From: Bacilli bacterium
Lineage (GTDB): Bacteria > Bacillota_I > Bacilli_A > RF39 > UBA660
DNA length: 64,000 nucleotides
Reading direction: 5' to 3'
Assembly: GCA_050948865.1 (NCBI GenBank)
Contig: JBMNEQ010000002.1
Coordinates: forward strand, 200,161-264,160
Part shown: piece after piece, positions 9,868 through 56,001 of the stretch
How positions within the stretch are numbered: the first letter of the stretch is position 1
How the letters are laid out: every line of letters begins with the position of its first letter
Notes under the pieces: generated by a model
What the model was told of the DNA's origin: nothing
Databases searched by the model: none
The model's input: only the letters and a program-made list of their open reading frames with translations
Position numbers and translations under genes: made by a program

Positions 9868-9944
<77 letters not shown>

Positions 9945-19750: not shown

Positions 19751-20485
19751 ATGATAAAGAAAGTTGAAGGCTTAATTATTAGAGATTTAGATTATGGTGA
19801 TACTAGTAAAATAATTTATCTCTTAACTAAAGAATATGGTCAACTTTCTGTTATAGCTAAAGGTGTTAAAAGCTTAAAAAGCAAATTAAGAGGAGTAACA
19901 ATGAAACTAACTTATGGTTATTTTCATATTTATTATAAAGAAGATAAATTATCAATTTTAGCTGAAGTGGATGTAATTGATAATTTGTTAGTAATAAAAA
20001 AAGATCTTACTAGACTTAGTTATGCTTCTTTTATTTGTAATTTAGTAGGACAAGTTATAAAACAGGCTAAAGAAGAAGAAAAGGAGGTAATTTATACTTC
20101 TTTTATTAATTCTCTTTTAAAAATAAATGAAGGTTATGATCCTTTAGTTATAACAAATATTTTGGAATTTAAATTATTAGATTATTTAGGAGTAAAACCA
20201 ATCATAGATAGATGCGTAAAGTGTGGTAATACAAATTCTATTGTTACTATTTCTAGTAGGGATTCTGGTTTTTTATGTTCTAAATGTTATCAAAACGAAA
20301 CTTTAATAAGCAGTAAGTCAATTAAGTTTTTACGAATGTTTTCTTACTTAGATATTGCTAAAATATCGAAGTTAAAAATTAGTGAAGAAGTAAAGCATGA
20401 AATAAATAATTTTATTAATATTTATTATCAAGAACATACAGGTTTATATTTAGATTCTAAAAACTTTTTAGAAGAAATAAAATAA
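19751..20485 (+). CDS. recO: DNA repair protein RecO
   Basis: DYGDTSKI, AKGVK, CxxC...CxxC. Confidence 0.93.
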   Translation: MIKKVEGLIIRDLDYGDTSKIIYLLTKEYGQLSVIAKGVKSLKSKLRGVTMKLTYGYFHIYYKEDKLSILAEVDVIDNLLVIKKDLTRLSYASFICNLVGQVIKQAKEEEKEVIYTSFINSLLKINEGYDPLVITNILEFKLLDYLGVKPIIDRCVKCGNTNSIVTISSRDSGFLCSKCYQNETLISSKSIKFLRMFSYLDIAKISKLKISEEVKHEINNFINIYYQEHTGLYLDSKNFLEEIK

Positions 20486-20531
20486 AGGCGGCATTTAATT
20501 ATTTATAACATTTAAAAAAGTTGAATTATTT

Positions 20532-20560
20532 TTGACAAATATTTATAATTATGCTATTAT
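20532..20560 (+). promoter_or_regulatory. SigA-type promoter
   Basis: TTGACA-17-TATTAT. Confidence 0.7.
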
Positions 20561-20574
20561 AAAATTTAATTTTA

Positions 20575-20775
20575 AAAAGCAATGAAAAGAAATAGTAAAT
20601 AATCCTCTTATCAATAGTGAATTGACGGTTAGTGGAAGTTAATGATAATGTTTATTGAACGTAGCTTGGAGCTTTTAAAGTAAATCTGCTATAAAGATAA
20701 AGAGTTGTATAGATTTCTATAAAATAAGGTGGTACCGCGTTATATCGTCCTTATATTATGGAAATCTTTTTTTTT
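20575..20775 (+). promoter_or_regulatory. T-box leader (specifier GUA/Val or CGU/Arg)
   Basis: Stem I with GA motif, AGUA and GAACGUAG; T-box AAGGTGGTACCGCG at 20726; CGTCCTT. Confidence 0.88.
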
Positions 20776-20797
20776 AAAAAATAAAGGAGGTAAAAAA

Positions 20798-20836
20798 ATG
20801 AAAAAAAATATTTATAGGAATAGACGATACCGGTAG
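20798..20836 (+). CDS. Arg-rich leader peptide MKKNIYRNRRYR
   Basis: AAGGAGGT RBS; four different Arg codons; followed by attenuator hairpins. Confidence 0.75.
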   Translation: MKKNIYRNRRYR

Positions 20837-20837
20837 A

Positions 20838-20934
20838 AGCGCTTGTAAATACGAAAACAAAGTAGATACAAGTGTTTTCCGATGCTTGTATCTACATAAA
20901 AAAAACTTATGTAGAAGAGGCATAAGTTTTTTTA
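20838..20934 (+). promoter_or_regulatory. Transcription attenuator with mutually exclusive hairpins and terminator
   Basis: A:B, B:C, C:D and D:E pairings; terminator AAAAAACTTATG...CATAAGTTTTTTT. Confidence 0.75.
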
Positions 20935-20949
20935 TTTGAAGGAGGAAAT

Positions 20950-22008
20950 ATGAAAAAGAAAATTATTCAAACTTTAGGCGATTTGATGAAATATAAAACA
21001 ATAGAAGGAAATAGTAAGGATTTTGATAGAGCTTTTGATTATATAAAAAAAGAAGTTTCTAAAACATTATTTTTAGTTGAGTATAAATTTAAAAATCAAA
21101 AAGCTCTAGTAATTAGTAATGTTAAAGAAAAGGTTTTAGATATTATATTTTGCACACATATTGATATAGTTCCTGCTGATAATTATGAAATGAAAATTAG
21201 TGATGATGTAATCTTTGGAAGGGGAACATTTGATATGAAGGGTAGTTTATCTGTTTTACTTAATTTATTTAATAATCTTAAAACAGATAAAAAAGTTGCT
21301 TTATTTATTACTAGTGATGAGGAAGTTGATGGTTATTCAGCAATGAAATTATTGAAAATATATAAAACTAATTTAGCAATTATTCCTGATGGTGGCTCGA
21401 ATTTTGATCTTATTGTAGAAGAAAAAGGTTTACTGCAATTAAAATTATCGATCAAAACTAAAGCGGCTCATGCTGCTGAATTGTATAAGGGAGAAAATGC
21501 TTTAATTAAATTAATTAAAATTTATGAAGAGTTAATAATTAAATACCCACTGCCAAAAAGTGAAACTGAATATATTACTTCTATTAATTTATCTAAGTTA
21601 GAAGGAGGGGATGCTTTAAATAAAGTCCCTGATTATGGTGAGATGATTTTAGATATTCGTTATACGTCTAAAGATAATGTGGAAGATATTATTAATTATA
21701 TAAAAAGCCTTAATAAAAAGGTTGTAGTTCAAACTATTGGTTTTGGACCTTTATTTAAAACAAAAATAAATGAAGAAATAAAAAGATATATAAAGATTTG
21801 TGAAATGGTTTTAAGAAAAGAAGTTCAAATTAAAACATCATCGATGGTGTCAGATGCTGTTTACTTTTCTAATTTAAATATTCCGACAATAATTATGAAT
21901 CCTGTAGGGGGAAATGCTCATGGCCCAGAAGAATATGTTACTCTATCTAGTTTAATAAAATTATATAAAATTTATGAAAAATTTTTGAAAAAGGAAGTGA
22001 AAAAATGA
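20950..22008 (+). CDS. M20 metallopeptidase (ArgE/DapE-like)
   Basis: HIDIVP, GRGTFDMKG, SDEE, AHAA, AHGPEE. Confidence 0.9.
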   Translation: MKKKIIQTLGDLMKYKTIEGNSKDFDRAFDYIKKEVSKTLFLVEYKFKNQKALVISNVKEKVLDIIFCTHIDIVPADNYEMKISDDVIFGRGTFDMKGSLSVLLNLFNNLKTDKKVALFITSDEEVDGYSAMKLLKIYKTNLAIIPDGGSNFDLIVEEKGLLQLKLSIKTKAAHAAELYKGENALIKLIKIYEELIIKYPLPKSETEYITSINLSKLEGGDALNKVPDYGEMILDIRYTSKDNVEDIINYIKSLNKKVVVQTIGFGPLFKTKINEEIKRYIKICEMVLRKEVQIKTSSMVSDAVYFSNLNIPTIIMNPVGGNAHGPEEYVTLSSLIKLYKIYEKFLKKEVKK

Positions 22009-22526
22009 ATTTAAATATTAAAAAAATAGAAATGTATAAAGACTTTAAAAAAGTTGTTCAAGTTTTTAAAGATCCACCATTTAGTGAAATATTAACAGAA
22101 AAGGAAATGATAGAGGAATTTAAATCTTATTTAGATAATGGGATATCTTATGGTTATTATAATAATAATAGTATATTAGGGTTTATTGGTGTTTTAAAAG
22201 GAGTTCAAAAGGGGCATCCTATAAATAAATATAATGCAGAGCAGGTGTTATATATTAATGGTATTGCTGTTTTAAAAGAATTCCGTAAAAAAGGAATTGC
22301 TACAAAACTTATGAATTATACTATAAAAGAAATAGATCTTTATAAATATTTAGCGATTTATTTAAGGACAAATTATCAAGGTTCAAAGATAAAAAATGTA
22401 GCTTTAAAAGCAGGTTTTGAAATCGTTAAAAAGGAAGGAAAAATAATAACTGAAGATGTTATTTTTAAAAGAAATAATGGGGAAATAGCTACAGATAAAA
22501 GAATGTTTATGTTAAAGAAACTTTAA
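22005..22526 (+). CDS. GNAT N-acetyltransferase
   Basis: IAVLKEFRKKGIATKLM acetyl-CoA motif. Confidence 0.88.
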   Translation: MNLNIKKIEMYKDFKKVVQVFKDPPFSEILTEKEMIEEFKSYLDNGISYGYYNNNSILGFIGVLKGVQKGHPINKYNAEQVLYINGIAVLKEFRKKGIATKLMNYTIKEIDLYKYLAIYLRTNYQGSKIKNVALKAGFEIVKKEGKIITEDVIFKRNNGEIATDKRMFMLKKL

Positions 22527-22528
22527 AA

Positions 22529-22695
22529 TTGACAAATATAAATAAGTATAATAAACTATAAGTATAAGAAAACGATGACGAAGTTGGCACTTCTAAGTTA
22601 TAGTTTAAAAAAGAGATTCTATGGAATAAATAAGGTGGAACCGCGGGGAAACTCGTCCTTATATATTTTTTAGAATCTTTTTATAAAAAAAGGAG
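22529..22695 (+). promoter_or_regulatory. Promoter and ultrashort Gly T-box leader of glyS
   Basis: TTGACA-17-TAAACT; GAAG-TTGGCA-CTTC hairpin with GGC; AAGGTGGAACCGCG. Confidence 0.8.
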
Positions 22696-22701
22696 ATGAA
22701 A

Positions 22702-24090
22702 ATGGAAAAGTTAACAATGGAAAAGATAGTATCTTTTTGTAAGCAGTATGGCTTTATTTATCAAGGTAGTGAATTATATGGGGGGTTAGCGAACACCTTT
22801 GATTATGGTCCTCTTGGGATTGAATTAAAAGAAAATCTTCGTAAAGCCTGGTGGAAAAAGTTTGTTCAAGAAAATCCTTATAATGTTGGTCTTCAATCAG
22901 CAATTTTAATGAATCCAAAAATTTGGGAGGTATCGGGTCATTTAAAACAAGCTACTGATCCTTTAATGGATTGTAAAAAATGTAAGGAACGTTTTAGGGC
23001 GGACAAAGTAATTAATGAATATATGAAAGAAAATAAGATAAATGATCAAGCGGATGGTTGGAATAATGAAAAGTTAATTAATTATTTAAAAGAAAAAAAG
23101 ATTAAATGTCCTAAATGTCAGGCTTTTGATTGGACAGATATTAGGGATTTTAATATAATGTTTAAAACCTATCAAGGGGTAACTGAAGAATCTCAAAATA
23201 TTGTTTATTTAAGACCAGAAACAGCGCAAGGGATGTTTGTTAATTTTAAAAATATTCAGCGCAGTATGCGTCTTAAAATTCCTTTTGGAGTAGCCCAAAC
23301 GGGAAAAAGTTTTCGTAATGAGATTACTCCTGGTAATTTTATTTTTAGGACTAGGGAATTTGAACAAATGGAATTGGAATTTTTTTGTCAACCAGGAACA
23401 GATTTAGCTTGGTTTGATTATTATAAAAAGTTTTGTTTAGATTGGTTAATAGATTTAGGAATAAAAAAAGAAAATCTTGATTTTCATGATCATTCTAAGG
23501 AAGAATTATGTCATTATTCAGTTGCGACAACTGATATTATTTATCATTATCCTTTTGGTTGGGATGAATTATGGGGAATAGCGAATAGGACTAATTATGA
23601 TTTAAAAAATCATTCTCAAGGTTCAAAAGTAGATTTATCATATTTAGATCCAGAAACTAATGAAAAGTATTTTCCATATTGTGTAGAACCAGCTTTAGGA
23701 TTAGATCGAGCTTTATTAGCTTTCTTATGTGATTCTTATTGTGAAGAAAAATTAGATAATGGTGAAACAAGAGAAATATTAAAACTTCATCCTTTTTTAG
23801 CCCCTTATAAAGTATCTGTTTTACCTTTATCAAAAAAGTATCACCAAGAAAAAGCTTTAGAAATATATCATAAATTAACCAAAAGATTGATGGTTAGTTA
23901 TGATGAAAATGGTAGTATTGGAAAAAGATATCGACGTCAAGATATAATTGGAACTCCTTTTGCTATTACAATTGATAATAATACTTTAGAAAATAATGAA
24001 GTAACAATTAGAGAGCGTGATACAATGGAACAAATAACTTTACCAATAGAAGAAATTGTTAATTATTTAGAAGAAAAAGTTTTATTTTAA
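22702..24090 (+). CDS. glyS: Glycine-tRNA ligase, alpha2 (dimeric) type
   Basis: DYGPLG, LRPETAQGMF, SFRNEITPGNFIFRTREFEQME. Confidence 0.96.
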   Translation: MEKLTMEKIVSFCKQYGFIYQGSELYGGLANTFDYGPLGIELKENLRKAWWKKFVQENPYNVGLQSAILMNPKIWEVSGHLKQATDPLMDCKKCKERFRADKVINEYMKENKINDQADGWNNEKLINYLKEKKIKCPKCQAFDWTDIRDFNIMFKTYQGVTEESQNIVYLRPETAQGMFVNFKNIQRSMRLKIPFGVAQTGKSFRNEITPGNFIFRTREFEQMELEFFCQPGTDLAWFDYYKKFCLDWLIDLGIKKENLDFHDHSKEELCHYSVATTDIIYHYPFGWDELWGIANRTNYDLKNHSQGSKVDLSYLDPETNEKYFPYCVEPALGLDRALLAFLCDSYCEEKLDNGETREILKLHPFLAPYKVSVLPLSKKYHQEKALEIYHKLTKRLMVSYDENGSIGKRYRRQDIIGTPFAITIDNNTLENNEVTIRERDTMEQITLPIEEIVNYLEEKVLF

Positions 24091-24640: not shown

Positions 24641-25090
24641 ATGAAAAAATTTAATAAAACACTTCGTGGCTATAATCCTGAAGAAGTTAATGCTTTTTTG
24701 GATGAAGTTATTGGTCGAGTTGAAAAGATGGTTATAGAAAGAAGAAAAAATGAAAAACAAATGAGGGAACTTCTTTCTAAAGTTTCTAATTTAGAAGAAC
24801 AAATAAATCGTTATAAAGCTTTAGAGGGAACGATGAACCAAACTATAGTTGCGGCTCAAGATAGTGGGGAACAAATAAGAAGATTAGCCAAACAAGAAAG
24901 AGATATGGTTGTTAATGAAGCGAGGAAAAATGCTAATCGGATTATTAATGAAGCGTTAATGAGATCTGAAAAAATAGAATATCAAACTAGTATTATGCGA
25001 AAAAATATTTCTTTATTTAAAAAGAGATTAAGAGGGGTCATTGAAAATCAATTAGAGATGATTGATGATATTGAAATTTTAGAAATATAA
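24641..25090 (+). CDS. divIVA: DivIVA
   Basis: LRGYNPEEVNAFLDEV plus coiled coil; sepF-divIVA-ileS order. Confidence 0.92.
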   Translation: MKKFNKTLRGYNPEEVNAFLDEVIGRVEKMVIERRKNEKQMRELLSKVSNLEEQINRYKALEGTMNQTIVAAQDSGEQIRRLAKQERDMVVNEARKNANRIINEALMRSEKIEYQTSIMRKNISLFKKRLRGVIENQLEMIDDIEILEI

Positions 25091-25299
25091 AACAAATGAG
25101 GGAGACGGTTTTTTAATTAATTTAAAAGCGAGTTGGAACTGGTGAAAGCCAATAAAATTAATAAAAAATAGATCACTCCTGATGTTCCTTTTTAAAATAG
25201 TAGAAAAGGACGCTTAGCGTTATAAAAGAAAGTGCATAATAGTTATTATGAACTAAGGTGGTACCGCGTTTTAACGTCCTTATTTAAGGATGTTTTTTT
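25091..25299 (+). promoter_or_regulatory. Ile T-box (canonical, transcriptional)
   Basis: AUC specifier at 25172-25174, AAGGTGGTACCGCG, terminator ACGTCCTTATTTAAGGATGTTTTTTT. Confidence 0.92.
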
Positions 25300-50053: not shown

Positions 50054-50074
50054 TTTCATCCCCCGTATTGAAAA

Positions 50075-50245
50075 AACCATGAAAGTGATTCTAAAAACGA
50101 TAAAACCTGATTAAATACAGGTGGGCATCTCATTAATACCTTTAGGATTCTTACATCATATGAGTAAGCATTCACACCAGCACTAAATTAGATTCCCTTA
50201 TCGTTGTTTGTAGGTTTTTCTTTTTACGAATCAACAATCATGGTT
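50075..50245 (-). ncRNA. ssrS: 6S RNA
   Basis: AACCATGA/TCATGGTT closing stem; GGGAATCT/AGATGCCC, CCCACCTG..CAGGTT and ATGC motifs resemble B. subtilis 6S-1; lies in the aspS-rarA neighbourhood; promoter TTTACA-17-TATACT at 50280-50252. Confidence 0.8.
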
Positions 50246-50390
50246 AAATTAAGTATAGCATTTTTCTTTATTCTTGTAAATGTTAAAAGTCTTTTTTGTT
50301 AAATAAAAAGGTAAGTTCCCGCCCAACTACCATATGGGAACTTAGTTGTTGAAATAATTTTTTGGATTCCTTTTAAGGAATTTTTTTGTA

Positions 50391-55780: not shown

Positions 55781-55795
55781 AATAAATCCTTTCTA

Positions 55796-55922
55796 TTTTT
55801 ATGTTTAGTTTTGTTTATTTGTCTAAACATTTACGATTACAGTTAGTAACCGGGAAGTATCCGCTGATAATTCGATTAACTTCCTCCTCGTCAATCAATA
55901 AATTATTGATCCAAGCGCTTTT
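55796..55922 (-). ncRNA. glmS ribozyme
   Basis: AGCGCT.GGATC...TGACGAGG...ATCGAA..ATCAGCGGA.ACTTCCCGG core directly upstream of glmS. Confidence 0.9.
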
Positions 55923-56001
55923 AATCTTAATTATATTTTTTATATCACACCCTTTCAATTTAGTGTATAAAATTTAAGGAATCTAAAATACTAATATTGA
56001 G

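Follow-up and report, generated by a model that had tools for sequence, protein, structure and literature searches.

A predicted arginine T-box and arginine-codon leader attenuator in series on an M20 hydrolase-acetyltransferase operon of an uncultured member of the Bacilli

Classical transcription attenuation is textbook knowledge for Trp, His, Leu, Thr, Ile/Val and Phe, and in leaders such as trpL and hisL it combines a short open reading frame (ORF) carrying a run of regulatory codons with alternative hairpins, the outcome depending on whether the ribosome stalls or runs through. In Bacillus subtilis, the rtpA leader peptide, with its Trp codons, reportedly controls the initiation of rtpA translation through the position of its stop codon. 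The at operon of this species (rtpA/yczA-ycbK; work of Chen and Yanofsky from 2003 and 2004), which PMC10327191 describes as having a Trp T-box, resembles the locus considered here in that behind the T-box lies a small ORF enriched in codons for the amino acid of that T-box, so that uncharged tRNA would be sensed twice in succession. For Firmicutes, His-leader attenuators have been described in PMC9413887 and PMC2965389, the former of which also mentions double T-boxes. For arginine, the nearest case is orf34 of Salmonella speF, presented in PMC6386406 as an ORF with consecutive Arg codons at which pausing reports low arginine and changes the fold of the mRNA; the outputs are Rho-dependent termination, unfolding of the ribosome-binding site and RNase G decay, and the gene encodes ornithine decarboxylase. 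In a full-text literature search we found no bacterial terminator-based transcription attenuator with Arg codons. Here we describe a leader in a stretch of 64,000 nucleotides (the window; G000:C2:200161-264160) from the genome of an uncultured, small-genome member of the Bacilli (975 kb, 26% G+C, 94.5% complete by marker genes). The leader precedes an operon encoding an M20 metallo-hydrolase and a GNAT N-acetyltransferase, and we consider it likely, judging from sequence, that it places an Arg T-box and an Arg leader attenuator in series on this operon, both opened by arginine shortage. Coordinates are window positions, and the elements of the leader and the operon lie on the forward (+) strand.

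Compared with trpL and hisL, the attenuator of the M20 operon would sense arginine, has five segments instead of four and precedes genes that do not form a biosynthetic pathway. It differs from rtpA in that the second gate is an intrinsic terminator with four alternative helices, in that the amino acid is arginine and in that the regulated genes encode enzymes; the terminator (20899-20933) stands between the leader ORF and the Shine-Dalgarno sequence of the M20 gene. With speF orf34 the M20 leader shares the use of Arg codons in an upstream ORF as a putative arginine sensor, whereas the M20 leader has an intrinsic terminator and a T-box, neither of which is described for speF orf34. Tandem T-boxes and riboswitches also place two cis-regulators in series on one leader and sharpen the response; in contrast, the two sensors predicted here are of different kinds, one relying on RNA-tRNA contact and the other on the ribosome, and sister loci have a leader followed by a second leader.

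The promoter, T-box, ribosome-binding site, Arg-codon ORF, mutually exclusive helices and terminator listed in the original prediction, which had been made from the letters of the DNA, were all recovered at their positions; the list lacked one element, the terminator of the T-box itself (20711-20775). The promoter (20532-20560) is of the sigma-70 type with an extended -10 element (TTGACA, 17 nt, TG-n-TATTAT; 11 of 12 matches, with the TG), and both the -35 and the -10 are kept in a four-way alignment of the T-box-bearing leaders. The leader ORF (20798-20836) starts at the ATG at 20798, 7 nt after a Shine-Dalgarno sequence (AAGGAGG, 20784-20790), and runs for 12 codons to a TAG at 20834-20836. 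Four of these 12 codons specify Arg, namely AGG at 20816 (codon 7), AGA at 20822 (codon 9), CGA at 20825 (codon 10) and CGG at 20831 (codon 12). The attenuator that follows is built of five segments. Segment A (20838-20852) is the one that a ribosome at the stop codon would mask; segment B (20862-20876) can pair with A or with C; segment C (20881-20899) can pair with B through 20881-20895 and, through 20891-20899 (C'), with D; and segment D (20907-20915), the antiterminator partner of C', overlaps the 5' arm of the second intrinsic terminator, T2 (20899-20933; A-tract, stem and T-tract; -11.7 kcal/mol). The computed helix energies are -13.1 kcal/mol for A:B (20838-20876), -17.1 kcal/mol for B:C (20862-20895) and -7.4 kcal/mol for the nine perfect pairs of C':D (20891-20915). 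For the region 20756-20950, folding gave z = -5.9, a stability matched by none of 200 shuffled sequences. A permissive Rfam scan of 20480-22720 returned no family for the element at 20790-20935, only chance snoRNA-like rows with E > 1.

We examined the switch by folding the leader under a ribosome mask, in an equilibrium model that ignores kinetics and in which all bases from the start through the 13th nucleotide beyond the A-site codon's first base are blocked. With a transcript ending at 20928, the probability of the terminator was 0.00-0.01 with the A site on codons 1-10 and 0.95-0.99 with the A site on codon 11, codon 12 or the stop codon, which places the switch of the own leader between codons 10 and 11, at the regulatory codons; with the T-tract included (to 20933), the range of low probability narrowed to codons 7-9. 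This reproduced the predicted course of events for a ribosome that reaches the stop codon, namely masking of A followed by B:C and the terminator. The claim that stalling on the Arg codons gives read-through held for codons 7, 9 and 10 and failed for the fourth, CGG, at which the masked leader folds into the terminated form. Concerning this codon, no tRNA-Arg(CCG) gene occurs among the 33 tRNA genes of the genome although long ORFs contain CGG at a frequency of 1.4 per 1000 codons, and many Arg leaders end with CGG or CGA followed by the stop codon.

A survey of 400 other genomes from the order revealed homologues of the M20 protein (43-65% identity) in 12 of them, and metagenomes contain homologues as well. 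Upstream sequence is present at 26 loci of the M20 clade (the own locus, L034-L045, L049-L057, L059, L060, L062 and L130, including three near-duplicate pairs), and conservation of the leader ORF, which had been proposed as a check, was borne out at every one of them: in each of the 26, a short ORF encodes an Arg run, in most cases N-x-R-R-R, and its Arg codons vary synonymously (AGA, CGU, CGC, CGA). No such leader was found at L061, a GNAT-like ORF fills the 420 nt upstream at L068, which has no Arg leader, and L046, L047 and L064 have a Trp-type arrangement in its place; at four more loci the sequence ends upstream of where the gene begins. Every element is retained in L048, a metagenome contig from the same organism. 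In a 25-unit alignment, 74.2% of the cells of A:B are paired, against 26-48% when the helix is slid, and 11 of its 15 pairs have changed on both sides; for B:C together with the terminator, the corresponding values are 96.8% against 25-55% and 14 of 19 pairs. The terminator columns are 99.5% paired, with seven of eight pairs changed on both sides. The alternative helices are thus accompanied by covariation and end in an intrinsic terminator. The partner of C differs by lineage: in the T-box group it is the terminator's 5' arm, and in other lineages the loop plus 3' arm. C:D was therefore assessed by folding each sequence, with no column count. Under the ribosome mask, in 17 of the 25 related units that have a terminator, the terminator disappears only when the ribosome is on the Arg run or immediately ahead of it, and it returns directly afterwards.

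The scaffold of this leader is not confined to arginine. A covariance model built from the Arg leaders (R1) detected only the own leader in its own genome, the next match scoring 20 bits with E = 0.7 (G000:C1:295881-295961). Applied to 150 further genomes, each representing one genus of the family, it detected 12 more sites in 11 genomes, one of which is a fourth T-box plus Arg leader (L130). On the same scaffold, His runs precede hisS (L133, L136 and L137, all above the TIGR00442 cut-off), hisG (one locus, L132) and other ORFs, and H-R-H (L134) or W-R-H (L135 and L140) precedes distant homologues of M20. The His and Arg runs occupy the same alignment columns, approximately 10-13 nt before the core of helix A. 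Exchange of a block of three codons to suit the gene that follows is the behaviour of a codon sensor. The loci L131-L141, from eleven genomes of the same family, form a family-wide set of modular leaders.

The T-box leader upstream of the ORF (20573-20755) matches RF00230 with 98.2 bits, against a gathering score of 93; the homologous T-boxes of L036, L037 and L130 score 117.4, 117.7 and 121 bits (range 117-121). It had been predicted to be a full T-box, and the T-box is there but incomplete: in the cmscan alignment the positions of Stem II are deleted, and a Stem II with IIA/B pseudoknot was not found. Most T-box classes have these elements and the glyQS type lacks them; the absence of Stem II matches the Stem II-less subclass and is compatible with membership among the T-boxes. 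The specifier lies at the 3' end of the Stem I loop, where the cmscan register gives CGU (20660-20662), preceded by GAA (20657-20659) and followed by the purine A (20663), and the homologues have GAA-CGC-A or GAA-CGC-G. Alignment of the homologous leaders, the check suggested at the outset, yielded CGU, CGC, CGC and CGC with a purine after each, whereas the shifted register yielded GUA, GCA, GCG and GCA, which is inconsistent. The model register that gives CGU here reads AUC in the T-box before ileS, and in L037 the helix below the specifier loop is perfect in the Arg register only. The four leaders with a T-box have 85% column identity. Because the homologues read CGC at the CGU column and the other register is inconsistent, the specifier is, on this alignment, Arg and not Val. 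A gene for tRNA-Arg(ACG) is present in the genome, and the variable U of the T-box bulge (UGGU, within 20730-20736) would form a G:U wobble with G73, which all three tRNA-Arg genes carry; tRNA-Val has A73. TBDB accepts a wobble at the discriminator, reporting G:U in 46% of Trp T-boxes.

The first intrinsic terminator, T1 (20711-20775), consists of a helix at 20711-20767 and nine T at 20767-20775, with a minimum free energy of -23.2 kcal/mol and z = -3.55. Its long helix incorporates Stem III sequence (the 3' half) and has the T-box bulge inside it. Antiterminator and terminator exclude each other, and T1 is atypical in that it competes with Stem III and the bulge as well as with helix A1; the same architecture is found in L036, L037 and L130. 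Ten T-box matches occur in the genome, and argS is not among the genes behind them. The T-box at G000:C4:153374-153574 precedes an HD-domain gene and valS, has the specifier GUC followed by G and a UGGC bulge opposite A73 of both tRNA-Val genes, and breaks the discriminator covariation kept by the other T-boxes of the genome. Another, at G000:C3:3555-3768 (142.5 bits), has the specifier AAC (Asn) and is followed by two tRNA-Asn genes and a gatA-like ORF; it seems to control tRNA genes.

The anatomy, conservation, covariation and codon register of the leader were computed; from them we infer tRNA binding, translation of the ORF and a response to arginine, which would operate as follows. Transcription from the promoter at 20532 would have to pass T1 and then T2 to reach the M20-GNAT genes. 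At the first gate, uncharged tRNA-Arg(ACG) would pair with the specifier CGU and the UGGU bulge, and its binding would hold Stem III and the antiterminator together, so that the long T1 helix could not form. At the second gate, a ribosome that reaches the stop codon would cover A, leaving B:C and then T2 to form, and a ribosome stalled on AGG, AGA or CGA (codons 7, 9 and 10, which involve three different tRNA-Arg) would leave A free, so that A:B and C:D form and T2 does not. As the output would be the product of the two gates, a low leak and a steep response may be expected. A general failure or block of translation could also open the second gate.

Several observations weigh against this mechanism. 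In the own leader, the CGG codon lies past the switch point, so that a stall there would lead to termination in the folding model; the Arg run is interrupted (R-N-R-R-Y-R); and with the ribosome absent altogether, read-through is the predicted outcome. Of the 25 related units, L041 switches in part only, and seven (L036, L037, L038, L039, L050 and both units of L051) show no equilibrium switch. In L036 and L037, C:D forms in a transcript still lacking the 3' arm of the terminator, with -9.3 and -9.4 kcal/mol (8 and 0 of 200 shuffles as low, respectively), and kinetic control would be needed in these two. The variable base U of the own T-box bulge meets G73 of tRNA-Arg only as a wobble, whereas eight other T-boxes with unambiguous specifiers pair Watson-Crick at the discriminator, the T-box of valS being mismatched outright; TBDB also reports a preference for a 3'-C specifier in Arg T-boxes, and the third base here is U. 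As regards the products, the M20 protein is far below every NCBIfam equivalog cut-off, and the GNAT protein varies widely from locus to locus (28% identity in a partial alignment).

Of the three readings offered in the original prediction, it is the Arg/Arg gate that survived. The Val/Arg gate would have the operon depend on shortage of both valine and arginine, with a Val-specific T-box (GUA then G); the own sequence, taken alone, permits a register of GUA, G and then CUU, and tRNA-Val(UAC) is present, whose A73 would pair Watson-Crick with the bulge U. On the strength of this U:A73 pair, Val was initially favoured, and it was dropped when the valS T-box was seen to break the rule and the homologues fixed the register. 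In the Val register the homologues read GCA, GCG and GCA, which are Ala codons, with a pyrimidine after each and not the CGC of the Arg register; the helix below the loop of L037 is perfect only in the Arg register; and valS has its own T-box, with GUC, elsewhere in the genome, which also disposes of the idea that the T-box is an orphan of a displaced valS. We therefore regard a Val-specific T-box as extremely improbable. The third reading, antibiotic-induced attenuation, draws on the arrest of ribosomes by macrolides at +x+ motifs such as R-x-R: the leader ORF would sense a ribosome-targeting antibiotic, and GNAT or M20 would be a resistance enzyme. R-N-R, R-Y-R and R-R-R fit the +x+ pattern, the ribosome-free own leader is predicted to read through, like sensors of translation inhibitors, and the GNAT protein weakly matches NCBIfam AAC(6') models. 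These matches, however, are far under the cut-offs (E = 6e-5, 23 bits against 140), and the operon, with M20 and GNAT, contains no rRNA methylase, ABC-F or efflux gene and in this is unlike an erm-type operon. Moreover, the Arg T-box in series at four loci would mean that arginine shortage was needed in addition to the drug, and because hisS and hisG are preceded by His-run versions of this scaffold, the leader is better understood as sensing amino acids than antibiotics. We judge antibiotic sensing to be unlikely, with only a small chance of being correct.

A similarly small chance can be given to the leader being an arrest peptide of the SpeFL or TnaC kind, in which the signal would be a bound small molecule such as arginine or ornithine and not the charging of tRNA, and in which the arrest would be brought about by the hydrophobic residues, the Asn and the Arg run. 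The residues before the run are loosely conserved (I/L, N, x, R-R-R), and in Salmonella speF, orf34 joins consecutive Arg codons with regulation by ornithine or arginine, as stated in PMC6386406. Yet the residues outside the run vary freely in a manner that fits AT-rich codon usage, and upstream of his genes the scaffold carries His in place of the Arg run, as a codon sensor would; an arrest induced by arginine would, in addition, turn the operon on when arginine is plentiful, opposite to the T-box. It might also be supposed that one of the two sensors is a decayed remnant that was carried along with an inserted cassette and no longer regulates, as the features of the own locus would allow: a T-box score only 5 bits above the gathering score, an A-G mismatch closing the base of the specifier loop, and an interrupted Arg run. 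Against such decay, the promoter, T-box, T1, leader and T2 are all retained in four genomes, which represent no fewer than three genera, at the column identity given above, the L048 contig of the same organism keeps them as well, and the main contigs of sequencing runs X2, X4 and X9 differ in 20573-20933 by one base only; we hold a remnant to be very unlikely, slightly more so than the arrest peptide. Control by two arginine sensors in series is thus the reading that we carry forward.

The M20 gene (20950-22008) encodes a metallo-hydrolase of the ArgE/DapE family (352 aa), and the start of the GNAT gene (22005-22526; 173 aa) overlaps its stop codon (ATGA). The metal and catalytic residues of the M20 protein are invariant among 21 homologues. 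In sequence searches against solved structures, M20 matched an uncharacterised M20 protein (2rb7), DapE or ArgE, and GNAT matched generic N-alpha-acetyltransferases or AACs, with a best E of 0.01; the latter has a normal acetyl-CoA motif and no informative relatives, and Atlas look-ups of both enzymes returned generic family names. The hint that M20 might be the ArgE of an arginine pathway was not sustained: it scores 84.9 bits with TIGR01892 against a cut-off of 297.7, and argB, argH, OTC and arcA (arginine deiminase) were not found in the genome (94.5% complete). Because none of these four was found, M20 is, on gene content, not part of an arginine pathway. The M20-GNAT pair probably serves arginine salvage. 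We would suggest, tentatively and at somewhat less than even chance, that in an arginine auxotroph these enzymes release the amino acid from acylated arginine or from peptides. M20 may be an amino-acid-releasing amidohydrolase whose specificity differs by clade. That its substrate is N-acyl-Arg or an Arg dipeptide is a guess, prompted by precedents among M20 enzymes.

The phylogeny of M20 bears on how the two sensors came together. Of the 26 loci, only four, belonging to three or more genera, combine a T-box with the leader, and in the other Arg-leader loci no T-box was found at E <= 0.001-0.01. As the four T-box-linked M20 genes form one supported subclade (100/97) within the Arg-leader clade (90/82), the T-box was, most simply, gained once, and the mini-ORF attenuator would be the older of the two. 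Two Arg leaders in series are present in five loci (L049, L051 and L055-L057). In four of these (L049, L055, L056 and L057) the second unit has no intrinsic terminator; its end hairpin seems to hide the Shine-Dalgarno sequence of M20, such that transcriptional attenuation would be followed by translational attenuation. Since a T-box plus leader is seen in four loci and a leader plus leader in five, two-step Arg control appears as a recurring solution for the M20 operon. In the tree, the type of regulator follows the M20 clades. A sister clade (L046 in G130, L047 in G096, and L064; 43-47% identity) lies behind a Trp-type T-box (GAA-UGG) that is followed by a short ORF with one or two Trp codons, and its M20 gene stands in one transcription unit with trpS, a unit that opens with a GNAT-like ORF in L046 and L047. 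These three loci are a Trp analogue of the Arg arrangement and recall the rtpA leader of B. subtilis.

The leader and operon are flanked by recO (19751-20485) upstream and, downstream, by a short Gly T-box (22540-22663) between GNAT and glyS (22696-24090), followed by an Ile T-box (25087-25284) and ileS. In a genome of the same genus (G001; L142), recO (61% identical) is joined directly to the Gly T-box and glyS with no M20 unit between them, and for this reason the unit of approximately 2 kb comprising promoter, T-box, leader, M20 and GNAT (20486-22530) is best taken as a cassette inserted between recO and glyS. The homologues of the cassette sit in other neighbourhoods, and it seems to move as one piece. 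The Gly T-box has a much shortened Stem I, a score of 45.8 bits (below the Rfam gathering score) and the specifier GGC followed by A; its terminator appears to share the unusual architecture of the Arg T-box, with a 5' strand taken from Stem III. Other Rfam matches in the window are ordinary (glmS ribozyme, 55791-55930, minus strand; 6S RNA, 50070-50249, minus strand; tRNA-Arg(UCU), 9868-9941, plus strand).

The DNA of the host occurs in metagenomes of anaerobic digesters, landfills and bioreactors. In three of the four sequencing runs compared (X2, X4 and X9), the single difference between the main contigs and 20573-20933 is a T-run shortened from nine to eight; a minor contig of X4 has three further differences, and X20 covers the stretch only partly. 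Among the sequencing-run records that hold the locus, none is on record as RNA. Two runs labelled RNA-Seq are probably DNA, available as contigs only, and mapping them gave no usable ends or joints; apparent joints at 20743/20928 in those contigs were discarded as other T-boxes of the same genome mapping across.

In summary, the leader of the M20-GNAT operon would represent a rare double check on one amino acid, and as both sensors are on one transcript, it permits two readouts of tRNA charging, RNA-tRNA contact and ribosome stalling, to be compared directly. Swapping a block of three codons would re-aim the scaffold to another amino acid, which could be used for synthetic amino-acid sensors. 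The leader also marks an uncharacterised M20-GNAT pair as arginine-linked in organisms that appear unable to make arginine, and it thereby offers a lead for enzymology. Taking all loci together, we lean slightly towards a joint reading in which a modular leader scaffold has been reprogrammed in this uncultured, small-genome family of Bacilli, hisS and hisG being served by His runs, M20-GNAT by Arg runs and other M20 genes by H-R-H or W-R-H. In that case, the Arg version would provide the first example of classical transcription attenuation by arginine, its AND-like doubling would have arisen independently by capture of a T-box and by duplication of the leader, and the M20 proteins may be salvage enzymes whose specificity (Arg, His or Trp) follows the sensor.

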